The notes beneath the pieces are model-generated. The model was not told where the DNA came from, ran no database searches, and was given only the letters and a program-made list of their open reading frames with translations. A stretch of DNA of 64,000 nucleotides from Escherichia coli (GTDB taxonomy: Bacteria; Pseudomonadota; Gammaproteobacteria; Enterobacterales; Enterobacteriaceae), in the NCBI RefSeq assembly GCF_011045215.1, contig NZ_CP049201.1, one strand, 5' to 3'. Both the position numbers and the translations under genes were made by a program. Within the stretch, counting starts at the first letter, position 1. Each line of letters opens with the position of its first letter. Below, in pieces: positions 4,727-51,820 of the stretch.

Positions 4727-4748
4727 CCCTCTTGCATTGTGTAATTCA

Positions 4749-4783
4749 TTTGCTTGCCGGAAGCAAAATAACCGGCAAGCAAA
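4749..4783. terminator. Bidirectional terminator between ribA and acnA
   Basis: Inverted repeat TTGCTTGCCGG..CCGGCAAGCAA between convergent genes. Confidence 0.6.
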
Positions 4784-4789
4784 TACTTG

Positions 4790-7465
4790 TTACTTCAACA
4801 TATTACGAATGACATAATGCAAAATGCCGTCGTTCTGGTAGTAGGTCAACTCCGTCGCGGTGTCGATACGACAACGGCAGGGTACGACTTCCTGGCTACC
4901 ATCCGCGCGCGTAAGCGTCACCGGAACCGTCGCGCCGGGTTGTAGGTTTTGCAGATCGCCAATATCAATCTTCTCTTCCCCGGTTAGCCCTAACGTTTTA
5001 CGCGTTACGCCTTGCGGAAATTCCAGCGGCAGGATGCCCATGCCAATTAAATTCGAACGGTGAATTCGTTCAAACGATTCGGCAATCACCACACGAATAC
5101 CAAGCAGACGCGGACCTTTTGCCGCCCAGTCACGGCTGGAGCCTGATCCATACTCTTTCCCGGCAATCACCGCCAGCGGCGTTTGCTCCTGCTTATAGCG
5201 CATCGCAGCATCATAAATAGAGACTACGTCGCTGTCAGGTAAATGCCGCGTCATCCCCCCTTCAACGCCAGGCACCATTTCATTACGGATGCGAATATTG
5301 GCGAAGGTGCCGCGCATCATCACTTCATGGTTACCACGCCGCGAACCGTAGGAGTTAAAGTCTTTTCGCTCAACACCCCGACCTTGTAGGTATCGACCCG
5401 CTGGGCTGTCGGGCTTAATACTGCCCGCCGGAGAGATATGGTCAGTGGTGACTGAATCCCCCAGCATTGCGAGGATCCGCGCACCGTGAATATCTTCCAC
5501 AGGTGCTGGTGTTGCCTGCATTTCATCAAAGAAAGGCGATAAACGAATATAGGTTGAATCCTCCTGCCATCCGTAGGTATCGGATCGTGCGACGTTAATT
5601 TCTTTCCACTCTGCAGTGCCTTCAAAGACTTCTGCGTACTCTTTGCGGAACATTTCTGTGGAGACTTGTTCTACCGCACGGGCAATTTCTTGTGCCGATG
5701 GCCAGATATCTTTCAGATATATTGGATCGCCTTTACGATCATGACCAATAGGCTCAGAAGCCAGGTTGATATTCATATTTCCCGCCAGCGCATAAGCAAC
5801 CACCAGCGGCGGCGAGGCCAACCAGTTGGTTTTAACCAGCGGATGGATACGGCCTTCAAAGTTACGGTTGCCGGACAGCACTGCACCGACGGTTAAATCG
5901 CCTTTTTTGATTGCCGTTTCGATAGGATCGGGCAGCGGCCCAGAGTTACCAATACAGGTGGTACAACCGTATCCCACAAGGTTAAACCCCAGTTCGTCGA
6001 GATACGGTGTAAGTTTCGCTTTTGCCAGATAATCAGAAACGACTTTCGAACCCGGTGCCAGCGACGCTTTGACCCACGGTTGCCGCTTGAGGCCCAGAGT
6101 TACGGCTTTTTTCGCCAGCAAGCCTGCGGCCATCAGCACACTTGGGTTAGAGGTGTTGGTGCACGAGGTTATCGCAGCAATGACCACAGCGCCATCAGGT
6201 AACTGATACTGATGTCCGTTCATAACATAATCGACCGGCTGGCGATCTTTATGCGTGGCATTCACTTCCAGTTCGTTACTGGCGGCAAATGCTTTTGGTA
6301 CATCGGGCAGTGCAACGCGATCCTGTGGGCGTTTAGGCCCTGCCAGGCTCGCTTCAACGTCATTCATATCCAGTTCTAACGTACTGGTAAAAATCGGTTC
6401 ATCGCCCGGGTTACGCCACATGCCCTGCGCTTTGGCATATTTTTCGACCAACTCGACCTGATCTTCGCTGCGCCCGCTTAAACGCATGTAATCGAGGGTT
6501 ACAGCATCGATTGGGAAGAAGCCACAGGTGGCACCATATTCTGGCGACATATTGGCAATGGTGGCGCGATCCGCCAACGGTAGTGAATCCAGACCATCAC
6601 CATAAAATTCGACGAATTTCCCCACCACGCCATGTTTGCGCAGCATTTGGGTAACAGTGAGAACCAGGTCTGTAGCGGTAATACCTTCACGTAATTTTCC
6701 GGTAAGTTTAAAGCCCACTACGTCCGGGATAAGCATGGAAACCGGCTGGCCTAACATTGCGGCTTCTGCTTCGATGCCACCCACGCCCCACCCCAACACG
6801 CCAAGGCCGTTTATCATAGTGGTGTGCGAGTCAGTACCAACGAGTGTATCCGGATAAGCAATCCATTCACCGTCCTGCAATTCGCTCCACACTGCTTTGC
6901 CGAGATATTCGAGGTTAACCTGATGGCAAATGCCTGTGCCTGGCGGCACGACGCTAAACCGACTGAACGCCTGCTTTCCCCATTTCAGGAACACATAACG
7001 TTCGTGGTTGCGCTCCATTTCCAGGCGTACGTTTTCTTCAAATGCCTCATCATCACCAAAACGATCGACGGTCACCGAGTGGTCAATGACCAGGTCGACC
7101 GGTGAGAGCGGGTTAACCTTTGCAGTATCGCCGCCGAGGCGTTTAACCGCTTCGCGCATTGCAGCGAGATCAACAACGGCAGGTACGCCGGTAAAGTCCT
7201 GCATCAGCACCCTTGCCGGGCGGTAGGCAATTTCACGGTCAGCATGGGCATTTTTCAGCCATCCCGCCAGCGCGTGGATATCCTCTTCGGTAACCGAGTT
7301 ACCATCCTGCCAGCGCAGCAGGTTTTCGAGCAAAACTTTGAGTGACTTGGGTAGACGGGTGATATCGCCCAGTGATTTGGCAGCAAGCGGCAGGCTGTAG
7401 TAGTGGTAAGTTTTATCTTTGGCCTGCAACGTGTCCTTACTGGCTTCTCGTAGGGTTGACGACAT
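4790..7465 (-). CDS. acnA: Aconitate hydratase A
   Basis: 891-aa ORF with aconitase-family motifs; matches recalled AcnA. Confidence 0.97.
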
Positions 7466-7837
7466 AGCTCCTCCTTAATGACAGGGTTGCGAAGCCCTGA
7501 TTCTCTTCAGGGTGAATATTAAAGATAACACAAACATCGCGTAACGATTTGATAACAACCCAAATTGATAAAAGAGGAGAAACCTTGTGGCAAAGCAAAT
7601 GACAACCCCGCCGCAGCGGGGTCAAGGATCAGTGAGTAATGATCCAGAGGAGTTCGGCCCAGAAGAGCATCGACAGAGAAAACGCGCCCATCCAGGACCA
7701 ATATTTCATATTTGTGTTGATCATAGGCTACACCCTTAACGGTTATTACTTTGTGTTGAGATAACTCAACCTGTTATTGCTGCGGTGTATTAAAAGCCCT
7801 GTAATTCATTAAAAATGGGTAATAAGAATGATGATAA

Positions 7838-8136: not shown

Positions 8137-8420
8137 TGCTAACCTCATATAATCGCCATCACTTATCAGCAAGACGTTGAACGATTGGTGTAATTAATCA
8201 TACGATGAGACAAATCCTAAAGAAACTTTAGTCAAAAATCCAGCGAATTTACGAATCGTCTTCAGTGAATAATTCAATCTTTTGACCTGAAATAGATATT
8301 TGAAAACTGGAGTTTGCGAGGCGGGTAATTAGACACTACTTTACAGGTAATTTACCCTATAAATATGAGGGATAAAATATTGTGCACGATATACAAATAA
8401 GTAACAAAAGAAAATATATT

Positions 8421-8449
8421 TCGGCACCTTCGCTACAAAAAAGGTGCCG
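8421..8449 (-). terminator. Probable cysB terminator
   Basis: Perfect 9-bp inverted repeat CGGCACCTT..AAGGTGCCG just downstream of cysB stop, T-rich flank on minus strand. Confidence 0.5.
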
Positions 8450-8465
8450 AAAATAACGCAAGAAA

Positions 8466-12882: not shown

Positions 12883-12908
12883 AAACGCGAGGTCTTACCC
12901 TCGCGTTT
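12883..12908. terminator. Bidirectional terminator between yciN and sohB
   Basis: Inverted repeat AACGCGAGG..CCTCGCGTT between convergent genes, T-run after. Confidence 0.6.
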
Positions 12909-13963: not shown

Positions 13964-14182
13964 GAGTCCCCACCTTGGTTAAACAACGCTTTGGCTCACA
14001 GTTTACAACAGGCATGTTAAGCCGTCTCGCAGAGATGTTATTGCAGCGAAAGTATGACAAAGTATCCATTTTGCGGTGTTATCGCCCCAGGCTGATTGAA
14101 ATGCCCTTCTGTTTCAGGCATAAAGCCCCAAAGTCATAAAGTACACTGGCAGCGCGACAGACAACGTCGTTGAGGAGTAGCC

Positions 14183-14941
14183 ATGCATTACCAGCCAAAA
14201 CAAGATTTACTCAATGATCGCATTATCCTGGTGACGGGAGCCAGTGATGGTATTGGTCGTGAAGCCGCGATGACGTATGCACGCTATGGTGCGACAGTGA
14301 TTCTGTTGGGCCGTAATGAAGAAAAATTACGTCAGGTAGCCAGCCACATAAACGAAGAAACTGGGCGTCAGCCACAGTGGTTTATTCTCGATTTGCTGAC
14401 CTGCAGGTCCGAAGATTGCCAACAACTGGCACAGCGCATTGCCGTTAATTATCCGCGTCTGGATGGTGTTTTGCATAATGCCGGATTGCTCGGCGATGTT
14501 TGTCCAATGAGCGAACAAAATCCACAGGTCTGGCAGGACGTCATACAGGTCAACGTTAATGCCACCTTTATGCTCACCCAGGCACTGCTTCCTTTATTAC
14601 TCAAATCGGACGCTGGTTCTCTGGTCTTTACTTCATCAAGCGTTGGACGTCAGGGACGAGCCAACTGGGGCGCATATGCAGCGTCGAAATTTGCCACCGA
14701 AGGGATGATGCAGGTACTGGCCGATGAATATCAGCAGCGCCTGCGCGTCAACTGCATTAACCCAGGCGGTACGCGCACCGCAATGCGTGCCAGCGCCTTC
14801 CCGACCGAAGATCCACAGAAACTTAAAACACCCGCTGATATCATGCCGCTCTACCTCTGGCTGATGGGCGATGACAGCCGCCGTAAAACCGGCATGACCT
14901 TTGACGCCCAACCGGGCCGTAAACCAGGAATTTCCCAATGA
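14183..14941 (+). CDS. yciK: YciK, short-chain dehydrogenase/reductase
   Basis: 252-aa ORF with Rossmann motif TGASDGIG and SDR catalytic Y-x3-K. Confidence 0.9.
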   Translation: MHYQPKQDLLNDRIILVTGASDGIGREAAMTYARYGATVILLGRNEEKLRQVASHINEETGRQPQWFILDLLTCRSEDCQQLAQRIAVNYPRLDGVLHNAGLLGDVCPMSEQNPQVWQDVIQVNVNATFMLTQALLPLLLKSDAGSLVFTSSSVGRQGRANWGAYAASKFATEGMMQVLADEYQQRLRVNCINPGGTRTAMRASAFPTEDPQKLKTPADIMPLYLWLMGDDSRRKTGMTFDAQPGRKPGISQ

Positions 14942-15528
14942 GTGATGAACGCTACCAACAGCGTCAGCAGCGAGTGAAAGAAAAAGTAGATGCTCGTGTG
15001 GCCCAGGCCCAGGATGAACGCGGTATTATCATCGTCTTTACCGGCAATGGAAAAGGCAAAACCACCGCGGCATTTGGTACGGCAACACGCGCAGTTGGTC
15101 ACGGAAAAAAAGTGGGCGTCGTGCAGTTTATTAAAGGCACCTGGCCTAATGGCGAACGCAATCTGCTGGAGCCACATGGCGTTGAGTTTCAGGTGATGGC
15201 AACGGGCTTTACCTGGGATACACAAAACCGCGAGTCTGATACCGCCGCCTGCCGCGAAGTCTGGCAACATGCAAAGCGGATGCTTGCTGATTCCTCACTG
15301 GATATGGTTTTGCTTGATGAGCTGACTTATATGGTGGCGTATGACTATTTGCCACTGGAAGAAGTGGTGCAGGCGTTAAATGAACGTCCACATCAACAGA
15401 CGGTGATTATCACGGGTCGAGGCTGTCATCGGGATATTCTTGAACTGGCGGATACGGTGAGTGGGTTGCGCCCCATCAAACATGCGTTTGATGCCGGTGT
15501 AAAAGCGCAGATAGGGATCGATTATTAA
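14938..15528 (+). CDS. btuR: Cob(I)alamin adenosyltransferase
   Basis: 196-aa ORF overlapping yciK stop (ATGA); P-loop GNGKGKTTAAFG; matches recalled BtuR/CobA. Confidence 0.95.
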   Translation: MSDERYQQRQQRVKEKVDARVAQAQDERGIIIVFTGNGKGKTTAAFGTATRAVGHGKKVGVVQFIKGTWPNGERNLLEPHGVEFQVMATGFTWDTQNRESDTAACREVWQHAKRMLADSSLDMVLLDELTYMVAYDYLPLEEVVQALNERPHQQTVIITGRGCHRDILELADTVSGLRPIKHAFDAGVKAQIGIDY

Positions 15529-15539
15529 TCTGTAAAAAT

Positions 15540-15562
15540 GCCGGATATGACGTCCGGCATAC
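15540..15562. terminator. Hairpin between btuR and rluB
   Basis: Inverted repeat TGCCGGA..TCCGGCA between convergent genes. Confidence 0.55.
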
Positions 15563-15567
15563 TTTGA

Positions 15568-16443
15568 TTAACCGTTATTATTACGTCCGCCAGAACGACG
15601 ACCGCCGCTCACCTGACTGTGACGTTTCACCGCACGACGAATCTGATTCGCCTTCATGCGACGACGGTCTTTTTCTACAGCGACTTTAGAGCTGGTTTCT
15701 GGCGGTAGCTCCACCAGTTCGCGCAGATAGTTAGTCTGGGCGAGGTCCAGCTCCGTCCAGCCACCGCGTGGCAGACCTTTTGGCAGTGGGATATCACCGT
15801 AACGAACACGGATCAGGCGGCTCACCTGCACACCAACCGCTTCCCACAGACGACGAACTTCACGGTTACGGCCTTCGGTCAGAGTCACGTTGTACCACTG
15901 GTTGATCCCTTCGCCGCCGCTGAACTTGATGGTTTTAAAAGCTGCCGGACCATCTTCCAACTGCACGCCACGACTCAAATCACGCAGTTTCGCGTCGTCA
16001 ACCTGACCAAATACACGCACGGCATATTCACGTTCAACTTCACGGCTTGGGTGCATTAAACGGTTTGCCAGTTCACCATCGGTGGTGAACAGCAGCAGAC
16101 CACAGGTATTAACGTCCAAGCGACCCACGGCAATCCAGCGTGCGCCACGTAGTTTTGGCAGACGGTCAAACACCGTTGGACGTCCTTCCGGATCGTTACG
16201 GGTACACAACTCACCTTCCGGTTTGTAATAGGCCAGAACGCGACAAATTTGTTCAGCGGACTCACGTACCGAAATCAGGTGACCATCGATACGGATTTTC
16301 AATCCAGGGGTAACTTCAACGCGATCGCCGAGTTTAGCAATTTTGCCATCAACACTCACACGACCGGCTTCAATAATAGATTCGATTTCACGGCGAGAAC
16401 CGTGGCCGGCACGCGCCAGCACTTTCTGTAGCTTTTCGCTCAT
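15568..16443 (-). CDS. rluB: 23S rRNA pseudouridine synthase RluB
   Basis: 291-aa ORF, S4 domain plus RsuA-type pseudouridine synthase core, Arg/Gly-rich C-terminus. Confidence 0.95.
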
Positions 16444-16655
16444 AGAGCTTCCTTTTGGTGTCGCCTTCCCAGGCGTCTGATATGCTTTTGTGCAACAGTG
16501 AGTCAGAACTTACATCTGACTCACTGATAGTAAAGTCTGTTTGAACTCTTCAGGCCTTAAGTAAACGACTCGACGTTTTAACTGGCCTGGCTTTGAGGCG
16601 CAACATACTACACTATCTTTATGGTTAAAGCTTGTTTCGATTAACATCAGCTTAA

Positions 16656-18551
16656 TTACCAGCCACCACCGCCTCCGCCACCCGCGCCGCCGCCAGAACC
16701 ACCACCGGAATAGCTCCGCCCCAACAAACTGGTATAGGCCCCGCAACTCAGGTGCGTCTGTAATGAGAATAAAACGCCACTACGGGCAATTTCCGGGGCG
16801 CTAACAGCCGCTGTGAGTGATGGGGTGATACGTGCTGCCCATTCTCTTCCAAGATTTGCTGAGACTGCCCAACCTAGCAACGCGTAATCCAGTTTCCGTG
16901 TTTCCCCTTTCCGCCGCCGCCCACTGTGTGTTGCCGCCTCTTTACGCGCAAGATAGTTAACGATAGCTTCACCGTGGGCATAACGTTGCTGCCCAGTTTG
17001 GGTAAACTTTGGCAGAAAAATATACCCCATACCAGTGAGATAACCGGTCAGGAAAACAGCGCTAAAATAACCCGCTGACATATACCAGTAAAAGAATACA
17101 TCTCCGACATTGATATAGAGAGAATAAAAGGCCACGCCTGAACAAATCAGCGGTAAAAACAAAGTGATGATTACACGATTAACGCAAGGCTTGTCATCAT
17201 CGCGGGCAAACAAAAGCTCAAGGGAACAAAATAAAAAAGGAAGAAGCCAGCAGATCATAATAAACATATCGCCCACCAGACTCATTCCTGCCCAGCCTAC
17301 AGGACTCAGGTTACCGTAGAGAATGACCGCCAATATTGCCAGTCCACCCCATTGCAAAAACATATCAGGCCGGTAAAACGAAGACTTTTTACGCGGCAGA
17401 TAAAATTTCTGCATTCGTAAAAATGCCCTGCGTAACACTCTGTTTCGCCCACCGCTCAGAATAACCTTATCGCTTTTGCGAAATAACGCGTCCAGCAATA
17501 ACTGCTCTGCGGGCAGTAATTCAGCATTATTTCTGGTCGCGCCTTCATTAACACGAATTAGGGTTTGCTGGTTCTTGTCATACTGATCTTCCAGATGAAT
17601 TTTTCCTTTCACAATCAGATTTACGATATCAGCACAAAAACCTTTATCGTCATAAACCAGCTTCGCATCGAGACGTAACATGCCGGGCGTGTAATCGGGT
17701 GGAATGACATCAGTTTCCATCACTTCCACCGGCGTAAATTGCGGCCTGCGCTTCCAGAGATATAACCATCCACACGCCAGGAACAGGCACGGAAACCAAA
17801 TTAACAACGATGACGTAGAAGGTAAAAGAAGATGGCTGAAAATATTCGTCGTTTGTGGTACCGGGGCATTACCAAGTAAAGCGTGAGGCCAGCGGTAGAG
17901 TACCGTGAAATCTTCACGATAAAACGGATCGCGGGATTCAATTCTTCCGTCCTCAAGGATGCGGCCATTTCGATATGTGTCGCCCTCTTCTCCAGTAAAG
18001 AGATCGATTTCGCTAAATGGATTACCCGCGATATCAGGGAACTTGAGTGAAAATCGGGTCTTATAGATTTCAAACGGCCAGTGGTTACCAGTCACGTTCC
18101 AGATTAACAGATCTGAATCTCCCTCACGCTGGAAAGCATTTTTAACCTGATAATGAATTTGATAATGATAGTCGCCTTGAGGCAAGAAACGTTGTTTATC
18201 GCCCACGACAATACTCATTAACCCGATATGCCAGTCATGATGCCAGGGTTCAGGAATACCATCACGGGTGACGCCAACAATATGATAGTTCAGCAGTGCA
18301 GCGTCCCCATTAGGCTGCATCCATAGTCGTGGTAAATCACGATAAAATCCGTGCTTAATCTGCTGATTTCGCGCCTGAAAATGAATGTTCTCTTTGATGT
18401 CGAGCACCCCATCCGGTTGCAGAGTGGCTTCAACATCAAAGAGCGAGATCCCTTCTTCATAAGAAGGCATCTCCGTGTTTTTCGCATAACTTAACGAAGA
18501 GAAAAAAAGCCCAACTATCAATAGCAAAATGCAGCGAAACTTCCCTGCCAT
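16656..18551 (-). CDS. yciQ: YciQ, large membrane protein with glycine-rich C-terminus
   Basis: 631-aa ORF, signal peptide, several TM segments, C-terminal GGGSGGGAGGGGGGGW. Confidence 0.9.
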   Translation of the reverse strand: MAGKFRCILLLIVGLFFSSLSYAKNTEMPSYEEGISLFDVEATLQPDGVLDIKENIHFQARNQQIKHGFYRDLPRLWMQPNGDAALLNYHIVGVTRDGIPEPWHHDWHIGLMSIVVGDKQRFLPQGDYHYQIHYQVKNAFQREGDSDLLIWNVTGNHWPFEIYKTRFSLKFPDIAGNPFSEIDLFTGEEGDTYRNGRILEDGRIESRDPFYREDFTVLYRWPHALLGNAPVPQTTNIFSHLLLPSTSSLLIWFPCLFLACGWLYLWKRRPQFTPVEVMETDVIPPDYTPGMLRLDAKLVYDDKGFCADIVNLIVKGKIHLEDQYDKNQQTLIRVNEGATRNNAELLPAEQLLLDALFRKSDKVILSGGRNRVLRRAFLRMQKFYLPRKKSSFYRPDMFLQWGGLAILAVILYGNLSPVGWAGMSLVGDMFIMICWLLPFLFCSLELLFARDDDKPCVNRVIITLFLPLICSGVAFYSLYINVGDVFFYWYMSAGYFSAVFLTGYLTGMGYIFLPKFTQTGQQRYAHGEAIVNYLARKEAATHSGRRRKGETRKLDYALLGWAVSANLGREWAARITPSLTAAVSAPEIARSGVLFSLQTHLSCGAYTSLLGRSYSGGGSGGGAGGGGGGGW

Positions 18552-18578
18552 AGTCTTCCATCCGTGGAACGCAATTTG

Positions 18579-19199
18579 TTATAAGAAAGGCTTCACATCA
18601 CCTACGCCTTCACGCACCACGACCGGCGTATCATCGGTAAGATCAATAACCGTTGTTGGTTTCTGCCCGAGATAGCCACCGTGAATAATCAAATCCACCT
18701 GTTTTTCCAGACGGTCTTTAATTTCTTCCGGGTCCGATTCGGTAAATTCGCTGCCTGGCAGCATTAGCGAAGTGGAAAGCATCGGTTCGCCCAATGCTTC
18801 AAGCAACGCCTGCGCAATCGGGTTAGAAGGCACACGCATACCGATGGTTTTGCGTTTTTCCTGCAACAGACGGCGTGGCACTTCTTTCGTCCCTTTCAGG
18901 ATGAAGGTGTAGTTACCCGGCGTGTTGTTTTTCATCAAACGAAACGCAACGTTATCGACAAATGAATAGGTCGAGAGTTCAGAAAGATCGCGACACATCA
19001 GGGTAAAGTTGTGACCGTCCGGCAGCTGGCGAATACGACAAATACGCTCCATGGCGTTTTTATCTTCAATTTTACAGCCGAGCGCATAGCCGGAATCAGT
19101 TGGATAAACAATCACCCCGCCTTTGCGCACGATCTCCACCGCCTGGTTGATCAGACGTTGCTGTGGGTTATCTGGATGAATATAAAAAAACTGGCTCAT
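18579..19199 (-). CDS. yciO: YciO, YrdC/Sua5-family protein
   Basis: ORF track 18579..19235; recalled YciO begins MSQFFYIHPDNPQQRL, ATG at 19199, ATGA overlap with trpH stop. Confidence 0.9.
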   Translation of the reverse strand: MSQFFYIHPDNPQQRLINQAVEIVRKGGVIVYPTDSGYALGCKIEDKNAMERICRIRQLPDGHNFTLMCRDLSELSTYSFVDNVAFRLMKNNTPGNYTFILKGTKEVPRRLLQEKRKTIGMRVPSNPIAQALLEALGEPMLSTSLMLPGSEFTESDPEEIKDRLEKQVDLIIHGGYLGQKPTTVIDLTDDTPVVVREGVGDVKPFL

Positions 19200-46266: not shown

Positions 46267-46457
46267 ACATAACGAAAAGTCATGTCATGATTTTAATTAT
46301 CGTTGCACTTTTTGCAATATAATTGACTATTGTTGCGAATAATGAAATCATTATGTCGTGGTTTTAATCCTTGTACCACAGAGTTGTTTAGCATTAATCA
46401 CGTTAGCGGCGTGAAATCCCCCGGAACCTCATCCCGGGGGATTTTTTTGCGCACAAA

Positions 46458-51238: not shown

Positions 51239-51820
51239 TTACTGAATACGCTCACCAAAGTAAAACTCAGGCTGATATTCACGTATCAGCCTTTTTTCTT
51301 CTTCCTCCAGCTCACGCTTTTTGCGCTTACATGCCTGTAGTTCCCTCCCCTTCTCGCTGGCACTTATCTGGTATTGCTCTTTGCGACGGGAAAAATCCTG
51401 TAATGCGCCCCACGGGATACCATAAGCCCCCGTTTTTCTGATACCCGGTATCACATTTCTGAATACCCAGTTACTGAAACGATGGGCGAACGTGCCAGGA
51501 GTAGCAGCTTTTCGACTTCTGGCAATCAGCTTGTAAAAACCAGATTCAGAAACGACGCTATGATTTGGATTTCCGCGAATACCGTAAGTTAAAGTTACGG
51601 TATTACTTTCATCATCATCCAGAGCTTGCAACGCCATGCGTGAATTAGTCAGTTCCAGCGCAGCGCAGACATCCTTTGCAACAAACCACGGATCGCCGTT
51701 CAGATACACCACGCGAACGTTCACACTATCAAAGCGCAGAACGACCAGATCACGAATATCACAGAATTTTTTCACTGGACGTGCGTCACCCTTGCCAGTC
51801 ACGGCAATATTTTTATTCAT
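51239..51820 (-). CDS. Bro-N domain protein (antirepressor-like)
   Basis: DIRDLVVLRFDSVNVRVVYLNGDPWFVAKDVCAALEL...GFYKLI..S....A..F..WV fits Bro-N. Confidence 0.7.
   Translation of the reverse strand: MNKNIAVTGKGDARPVKKFCDIRDLVVLRFDSVNVRVVYLNGDPWFVAKDVCAALELTNSRMALQALDDDESNTVTLTYGIRGNPNHSVVSESGFYKLIARSRKAATPGTFAHRFSNWVFRNVIPGIRKTGAYGIPWGALQDFSRRKEQYQISASEKGRELQACKRKKRELEEEEKRLIREYQPEFYFGERIQ

Follow-up and report, generated by a model that had tools for sequence, protein, structure and literature searches.

What is the function of a long perfect inverted repeat that lies between two bacterial genes and lacks the T-run of a classical terminator? The question is raised by the spacer between yciQ and rluB in Escherichia coli contig NZ_CP049201.1 (assembly GCF_011045215.1), of which we analysed a stretch of 64,000 nucleotides, here called the window. 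An earlier note, made from the letters of this window alone, had proposed that the repeat could be either a protein-binding palindrome or an RNA stability element. By comparing the leaders of rluB, we show that the repeat, which we term “P1”, is a structurally conserved, predicted RNA hairpin of the sense strand that occupies a fixed place in the rluB leader across the Enterobacterales.

A conserved hairpin ahead of rluB

The repeat first described as CAGTGAGTCAG-N9-CTGACTCACTG is present in the window sequence. A repeat finder returns perfect 12-nt arms at 16496-16507 and 16515-16526, with 100% complementarity and 7 nt between them, so that the repeat extends to a 12-bp stem with a 7-nt loop; its true span of 16496-16526 is about 3 nt off the 16493-16525 given in the earlier note, which counted 11-bp arms. 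The placing downstream of yciQ and upstream of rluB was right, and both genes are on the minus strand. On this transcribed strand, P1 begins 129 nt past the yciQ stop and ends 52 nt ahead of the rluB ATG.

Perfect inverted repeats of this size exceed chance in the window: 3 combine arms of 12 nt or more with a loop of 3-12 nt, where 200 dinucleotide-preserving shuffles average 0.045, and for arms of 10 nt or more the count is 7, where shuffles give 0.6. The 31-mer of the repeat is single copy in the window with 3 mismatches permitted, and an identical copy is found in K-12 MG1655 (NC_000913.3 1326769-1326799). As RNA, P1 folds with -19.4 kcal/mol (z = -5.4 against shuffles), and the fold of the full yciQ-rluB spacer beats all of its shuffles (z = -4.6).

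Across genera, a hairpin of -8 kcal/mol or better was found in 59 of 83 loci, ending 8-28 nt before an invariant box, which we term “P2”, just upstream of rluB. The E. coli repeat is homologous in sequence to the hairpin of a large “long-leader” group: its arms ATCAGTGAGTCA...TGACTCACTG align with ATCAGTGAGTTA...TAACTC(G/A)TTG, followed by the same type of linker and by P2, in Kosakonia, Leclercia, Cedecea, Erwinia mallotivora, Yersinia and Pluralibacter. The hairpin that reads ATCAGTGAGTCAGA...TCTGACTCACTG in E. coli has the Klebsiella homologue ACATGGCGTTAG...TAGCGTCATGT. Furthermore, hairpins of unrelated sequence stand at the same position in E. coli genomes that have no yciQ, in Citrobacter, Enterobacter, Serratia and others. 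The Escherichia hairpins are the more stable, at -19 to -25 kcal/mol versus -10 to -16 kcal/mol elsewhere.

Covariation in the P1 helix was scored in two alignments. In a plain MAFFT alignment of 23 leaders, covering the 10 basal pairs of P1, 90% of the cells of the helix are paired, 6 of the 10 pairs change on both sides, and 17 cells are compensatory where 3.3 are expected, a score that none of 500 shuffles reached. When the partner is slid by 1-3 columns as a control, pairing falls to 31-48%. A second alignment, of 71 distinct sequences fitted to a covariance model built from the MAFFT alignment, has all 10 pairs covarying and 179 compensatory cells compared with 53 expected.

The pairing is moreover specific to one strand. 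Of 82 sources compared with the covariance model, 72 gave a match, exactly one at each locus and without exception on the rluB-sense strand. Twenty-nine G·U pairs, valid on the sense strand only, are carried by the P1 helix, and 90.0% of cells are paired in the sense orientation versus 77.7% in antisense. The only divergent Escherichia version of the yciQ-type hairpin that was found (locus L004 in our numbering), CAGTGGGGCAGG-TGATAAA-TCTGCCCCACTG, differs in its loop and in three pairs: two are fully compensated, A-U having become G-C and U-A likewise G-C, and in the third an A-to-G substitution produces a G·U pair; among complete E. coli genomes, the closest leader to this type is only 81.7% identical. 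The earlier note had made its proposal depend on the palindrome being conserved outside this strain, and it is, as a sequence in 3,976 E. coli genomes and as a structure across the order.

Within the species, variants were sampled among 3,977 E. coli records with P1. The repeat is exactly that of the window in 2,645 records, a single-nucleotide polymorphism in the loop accounts for 108, and about 1,190 have CATTG in place of CACTG, which turns one G-C pair into G·U (for example in ATCC 25922 and clone D i14), a share of about 30% of the yciQ-positive E. coli. Rare variants have extra bases in the loop or lose the pairing that closes it, and mid-stem disruption was found in none of the variants sampled. 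The perfect palindrome is one allele of a structure that tolerates wobble on one strand, a behaviour expected of an RNA helix and not of a DNA operator.

A separate observation is that TAAnnnRTTGAWWWW, a motif corresponding to the tail and 3′ arm of P1, is present about 15-25 nt upstream of the P2 box even in loci where no convincing 5′ arm is seen (L031-L034, L044, L053, L054, L062, L064, L065, L068, L074, L077 and L078). The motif may have a sequence-specific role of its own.

A probable cis-acting role in the leader RNA and its alternatives

The rluB transcript takes in at least the sequence just 3′ of P1. The MazF-regulon table reports cleavage of the MG1655 rluB mRNA 49 nt upstream of the start codon (PMC5001579), and an ACA at 16489-16491, located in the linker 3-5 nt past P1, matches this position; this flank is therefore part of the rluB mRNA in MG1655.

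Further upstream, a pattern of TAnnnT followed by (A/G)(C/T)GCGGCC recurs ahead of rluB in many genera, which suggests a putative rluB promoter consisting of a -10-like hexamer and a GC-rich discriminator, a feature reminiscent of ribosomal promoters under stringent control. It reads, for example, TATACTACGCGGCC, TAGTATGTGCGGCC or TATAATAGCCGGCC, and TAGTATGTTGCGCC in yciQ-bearing E. coli, and the discriminator takes the form GCGGCC or GCGCC after TAnnnT in most genera (including L005, L023, L053 and L062). The -10-like element lies 133 nt upstream of P2. In Erwinia/Pantoea-type loci the hexamer is inside a full sigma-70 match, GTTACA-17-TATAAT. No canonical -35 is found in the E. coli leader, and a clear -35 is absent in the Escherichia, Citrobacter and Enterobacter versions.

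One reported start site was considered and rejected. The row “yciL” (= rluB) of Mendoza-Vargas 2009, with a transcription start site at -51 (clone B1276-2), has a -10 box that maps to window positions 7518-7533 on the minus strand; the label is wrong for rluB, which is 9 kb away, and the site is probably upstream of acnA. K-12 Term-seq data (PMC7815308) place the rluB terminator at 1327761, and further record a Rho-dependent 3′ end within yciQ (NC_000913.3 1325258, plus strand) and an antisense Rho-dependent 3′ end in the 5′ part of rluB (NC_000913.3 1326939, minus strand). In our literature search, no paper connected rluB to yciQ, to a leader element or to cleavage of its mRNA by RNase III.

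Judged from the conserved structure, we consider it fairly probable that P1 acts in cis on the RNA, and we hold the details of this action with less confidence. In such a leader, the order would be the promoter-like -10 and GC-rich discriminator, a variable leader, P1, an A/U-rich single-stranded linker of about 18 nt, P2, the Shine-Dalgarno sequence and the AUG. Folding as soon as it is transcribed, P1 would shield the linker, P2 and the ribosome-binding region against base pairing with sequence further upstream, whether leader or yciQ read-through. It would slow nucleases as well, RNase E on its scan from the 5′ end and exonucleases that enter where the linker has been cleaved; a model by Richards and Belasco is said to have RNase E scanning obstructed by obstacles. 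In several genera the homologous hairpin is followed by a U-run and would probably double as a leaky terminator, that is, an attenuator. In Escherichia, the U-run has been lost (the sequence is UUGCAC instead) and the stem is longer and fully Watson-Crick, so that termination would not be its present role there. The 5′ hairpin of ompA is a known stabilizing stem-loop of a 5′ UTR (untranslated region). P1 resembles stem-loops of this kind in being a stable hairpin with an A/U-rich single strand downstream and in keeping its structure while its sequence is free, but, unlike the ompA-type hairpin, it probably stands back from the very 5′ end of the leader in the yciQ haplotype, where it lies about 80-110 nt from the putative -10.

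Several points weigh against this cis-acting role. The role of stabilizer or insulator is a choice among several possible RNA-level roles. The promoter is placed by conservation alone, E. coli having no recognizable -35. The shuffle controls used for the covariation leave in the relatedness of the sequences by descent, and the structure scored in the 71-sequence alignment is the one to which its sequences were fitted. Perfect palindromes can, moreover, stay perfect by template-switch mutation without selection, and quasipalindrome correction by template switching does occur in E. coli. Finally, Erwinia/Pantoea-type loci have a strong promoter near P2 and a P1 that is slight or absent, and P1 is therefore not indispensable. 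This combination fits a role as an insulator that is needed chiefly in long leaders.

Could P1 act on transcription instead? The statement in the earlier note that the repeat has no T-run and is not a classical terminator holds: neither side has a T-run (the tail is UUGCACAA on the sense strand, with 2 U in 8, and AUAGUAAA on the other), and a terminator scan found 0 terminator-like sites in 16300-16800. As a stem-loop between promoter and start codon, with a 3′ U-run in several homologues, P1 is similar to the intrinsic terminators and 5′ UTR attenuators known from Term-seq (PMC7815308), from which the E. coli version departs by having no U-tract, a stem of only 50% GC and no 3′ end in K-12. 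We regard it as unlikely that P1 is a working transcription attenuator in E. coli, that is, a pause site or weak terminator curbing transcription from the leader promoter and read-through from yciQ. In its favour, UUUUU follows the homologous hairpin in Kosakonia, Leclercia, Klebsiella, Enterobacter and a Salmonella-labelled genome, the Kosakonia version is terminator-like in the scan, and P1 is downstream of the conserved promoter-like element. However, beyond the poor tail and the empty scan in E. coli, the K-12 3′-end tables (PMC7815308) have no entry at 13267xx/13268xx or elsewhere in the yciQ-rluB spacer, where low expression could hide a weak 3′ end. The hairpins of Yersinia, Serratia and Citrobacter are also without a U-run, and termination is therefore not the conserved role. 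A position downstream of yciQ, great stability without a U-tract, and the cleavable ACA and A-rich stretch that follow P1 would suit another function, a 3′-end protective hairpin for the rnm-yciO-yciQ transcript that acts as a REP-like exonuclease barrier after Rho termination or cleavage. Such protection would be compatible with the cis-acting role in the rluB leader, as a second effect of the same structure. As the explanation of P1 we find it quite unlikely: P1 is anchored to rluB, at 8-28 nt from P2, with varied upstream genes (yciO, oprB, the Klebsiella cargo) or none; the yciQ stop is 129 nt away and is directly followed, in the fold, by a small separate hairpin; and no stable 3′ end was detected there in K-12. 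For oprB, the gene that precedes rluB in the Salmonella-labelled genome, reading by eye finds a separate hairpin of terminator shape about 380 nt upstream of rluB, which indicates that P1 belongs to the rluB leader.

Two explanations remain. Perfect dyad symmetry within a regulatory spacer is what a DNA operator for a dimeric regulator of rluB or yciQ would show in this strain, but it is the pairing that is conserved across genera and not the half-site sequence, P1 lies about 80-110 nt downstream of the putative -10, and no likeness to sites of the LexA, TrpR, TyrR or Cra type was recognized by eye, no motif library being searched. The 29 G·U positions are asymmetric in DNA, as are the roughly 30% of yciQ-positive E. 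coli with the G·U allele. We hold such an operator to be extremely improbable. From the either/or of the earlier note we accordingly keep the RNA-level element and drop the protein-binding palindrome, given covarying arms, sense-only G·U pairs and about 1,190 asymmetric genomes. Very doubtful, in our view, is also that P1 is a functionless quasi-palindrome, left over from a terminator of its ancestors and with its perfection maintained by template switching during replication. It is true that the Escherichia 3′ arm departs from the inter-genus consensus exactly where a wobble becomes a Watson-Crick pair, the expected signature of template-switch correction, that the U-run is lost and that Erwinia/Pantoea-type loci are without a strong P1. 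Nevertheless, most genera keep hairpins of unrelated sequence at the same place, the variants sampled among the 3,977 E. coli records affect the loop, the loop-closing pair or a wobble, and a common G·U allele means that the DNA is not being homogenized.

Other identities were tried and rejected. A copy of a REP, BIME or ERIC element is ruled out, since the 212-nt spacer and its 66-nt core each match a median of one place per genome. P1 is similar to these elements (ERIC being also known as IRU) as a palindrome in a transcribed intergenic region able to protect upstream mRNA, and the likeness of its CTTACAT to the ERIC core is limited to this 7-mer. An RNase III site would need about two helical turns (~20 bp), compared with the 12 bp of P1. 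A coding role was dismissed for a 78-amino-acid (aa) open reading frame (ORF) at 16510-16746 on the minus strand, which ends inside the repeat and does not survive a 2-nt indel that distinguishes the window from K-12, and likewise for the AUG-UAA at the hairpin apex, which is not retained in L004. Rfam 15 has no match at E ≤ 10 in window positions 14000-19000. In 16 other loci no match above the Rfam gathering threshold falls in the rluB leader, the only ones, Trp_leader and RprA, being elsewhere. The box P2 is likewise absent from Rfam.

The invariant box P2 and possible autoregulation

P1 alone is a routine kind of element. Tracing it, however, exposes a leader architecture of P1, linker, P2 and Shine-Dalgarno sequence that is order-wide and uncurated and that belongs to a gene of ribosome biogenesis. 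Its parts in the window are given in Table 1.

Table 1. Coordinates of rluB, yciQ and the elements between them in the window
Feature	Position	Strand	Description	Basis
rluB coding sequence	15568..16443	-	23S rRNA pseudouridine-2605 synthase; gene served by the leader	
Spacer and Shine-Dalgarno sequence	16444..16458	-	CCAAAAGGAAGCUCU, directly ahead of the rluB AUG	
P2	16459..16477	-	invariant box GACGCCUGGGAAGGCGACA; 5-bp stem CGCCU/AGGCG with GNRA tetraloop	
Linker	16478..16495	-	UUGCACAAAAGCAUAUCA, single-stranded, from P1 to P2	RNA fold
P1	16496..16526	-	inverted repeat; rluB-sense RNA CAGUGAGUCAGA-UGUAAGU-UCUGACUCACUG, 12-bp stem, 7-nt loop	
P1-linker-P2 module	16458..16531	-	match of the covariance model built here	73.4 bits, E ~1e-13
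Upstream leader hairpin	16551..16590	-	CCAGGCC...GGCCUG with apical AAACG/CGUUU stem	folds, alignment
Putative promoter-like element	16597..16610	-	-10-like TAGTAT, then GC-rich discriminator GUUGCGCC	conservation
yciQ (DUF2207)	16656..18551	-	accessory gene; one haplotype block with this leader version	

P2 is a 19-nt box, GACGCCTG(T/G)GAAGGCGACA, located 14-18 nt ahead of the AUG and 5 nt upstream of the Shine-Dalgarno sequence of rluB. One position apart, it does not vary in the 80 Enterobacterales loci or in any E. coli locus examined, a range that extends from Escherichia to Yersinia, Serratia, Erwinia and Pantoea. Of 5,426 E. coli genomes, 5,422 have it, in single copy, and its conservation is stricter than that of RluB itself. 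The predicted fold is a 5-bp stem with a GNRA loop (GGGA here, GUGA elsewhere), an A·A mismatch and a closing G-C pair, and the variable base is the N of the loop. In both alignments the P2 helix is 100% paired and shows no variation. A search for GAGA and GCGA variants of the loop gave 51 matches in 241 million metagenome records, none of them beside an rluB homologue, and hence no added support for a free N in the tetraloop.

Autoregulatory leaders that mimic an rRNA target are familiar from ribosomal protein operators (such as S4/alpha operon), and ksgA is under autogenous translational control. The rluB leader is similar in having a small invariant hairpin near its Shine-Dalgarno sequence and a gene product that binds an rRNA hairpin, a partial likeness that concerns P2 and not the inverted repeat. 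We take the RluB substrate to be helix 93 (H93) of 23S rRNA, GAACGUC-GUGA-GAC(A)GUUC, which agrees with the residues named in PMC3919597. H93 has seven pairs, the first G of its GUGA loop is contacted by Arg17 of the S4 domain, and the closing pair G2588-C2606 is next to the target pair A2589-U2605. P2, written as GACGCCU-G(U/G)GA-AGGCGAC, is like H93 in its 7 levels, its G-N-G-A tetraloop, its closing G-C pair and an A beside the closing pair (the 5′ A at level 2). It is unlike H93 in the interior of the stem, in having an A·A mismatch, level with the target pair, one level lower than the bulged A2602 of H93, and in carrying an A at the position of U2605.

It is conceivable, though in our estimation rather unlikely, that P1, linker and P2 together form an autoregulatory rluB operator in which P2 would be a non-modifiable decoy of helix 93. 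Free RluB would then bind its own mRNA at P2 and repress translation when its pre-50S substrate is scarce, and P1 would hold the operator in a defined context. To our knowledge, such feedback has not been described for any pseudouridine synthase, and P2 would be a concrete candidate for feedback control of an rRNA-modifying enzyme. A CsrA site, made of the GGA in the P2 loop and the GGA in the Shine-Dalgarno sequence, was also considered; it is possible in E. coli, but the taxa with a GUGA loop are without the first GGA, and it is not a conserved feature.

Two E. coli leaders and the yciO-rluB junction

The earlier note had called the spacer a core-genome intergenic region, which is wrong. Of 5,426 complete E. 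coli genomes, 3,976 have the 212-nt spacer with the yciQ-type leader, and yciQ is missing along with this leader version from the other 1,446, which include O104:H4 and O111:H8 strains and in which yciO is joined to rluB via a different spacer of 100 nt. A search by RluB found no yciQ within 3.5 kb upstream of rluB in any of 80 other Enterobacterales species. The GC content of yciQ is 44-47%, compared with 52-55% in its flanks. The two haplotypes converge again only at GACGCCTGGGAAGGCGACA, 34 nt ahead of the AUG. Their leaders measure 133 nt with yciQ and 53 nt without it, and the hairpin of the yciQ-less leader differs, reading AAUGGCGC-UCUACU-GCGCCAUU (L002 1435-1534). This dimorphism provides a natural experiment on leader structure versus rluB expression.

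Outside this pattern, a homologue of YciQ with 50-56% identity is at the same site in genomes of the Klebsiella oxytoca group, where the locus adds an ORF of 87 aa and a genuine ERIC-like element, placed elsewhere in the spacer (L088, about 5165-5200). A 77%-identical variant of YciQ (L091) has a spacer identical to that of the window. A search for RluB homologues that was aimed beyond the Enterobacterales returned only relatives at 86% identity or more.

From one genus to another, the gap between yciO and rluB differs in size, being about 100 nt at its shortest and more than 3.4 kb at its longest (L003-L097). Its cargo includes an OprB porin gene in the Salmonella-labelled genome and five genes in K. 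pneumoniae. Because the genera carry differing cargo or nothing at this junction, we consider it, by comparison of these sequences, to be an insertion hotspot across the Enterobacterales. A segment of the long leader, CCACGAATCATTGTGTGTGACAGCTTGTGTGACA...GCCATGCTGTGTACCATGAA, is near-identical in Kosakonia-, Enterobacter-, Cedecea- and Erwinia-labelled loci and in two metagenome-assembled genomes (L018, L024, L025, L037, L048 and L052), about 60-130 nt upstream of the P2 box, which hints that the leader may have spread horizontally with its upstream cargo. One ENA contig (P0097) has a 451-aa gene call that unites a YciO domain (PF01300) with the RluB domains, and would be either a true yciO-rluB fusion or a miscalled read-through.

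The upstream leader hairpin is variable, and its apex is deleted in the divergent locus L004. The apical hairpin AAACGUCGAGUCGUUU of its stem, at 16563-16580 on the minus strand, has the 7-mer AACGUCG in common with the 5′ strand of 23S helix 93, which is probably a coincidence because this apical hairpin is deleted in L004 and not seen in other genera.

Six further perfect inverted repeats with arms of 10-13 nt are present in the window. Two of them, at 4748-4784 and 51578-51604, are without the form of a bidirectional terminator (A-run, GC-stem, T-run), which the other four have (282-307, 8419-8452, 12883-12908 and 46414-46444). This shape is common among the other long perfect repeats of the window, and P1 is without it. 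Lastly, the C-terminal tail of YciQ is glycine-rich (...GGGSGGGAGGGGGGGW), and the corresponding DNA at 16659-16700 on the minus strand is a 15-nt direct repeat, GCCACCACCGCCTCC / GCCACCCGCGCCGCC.

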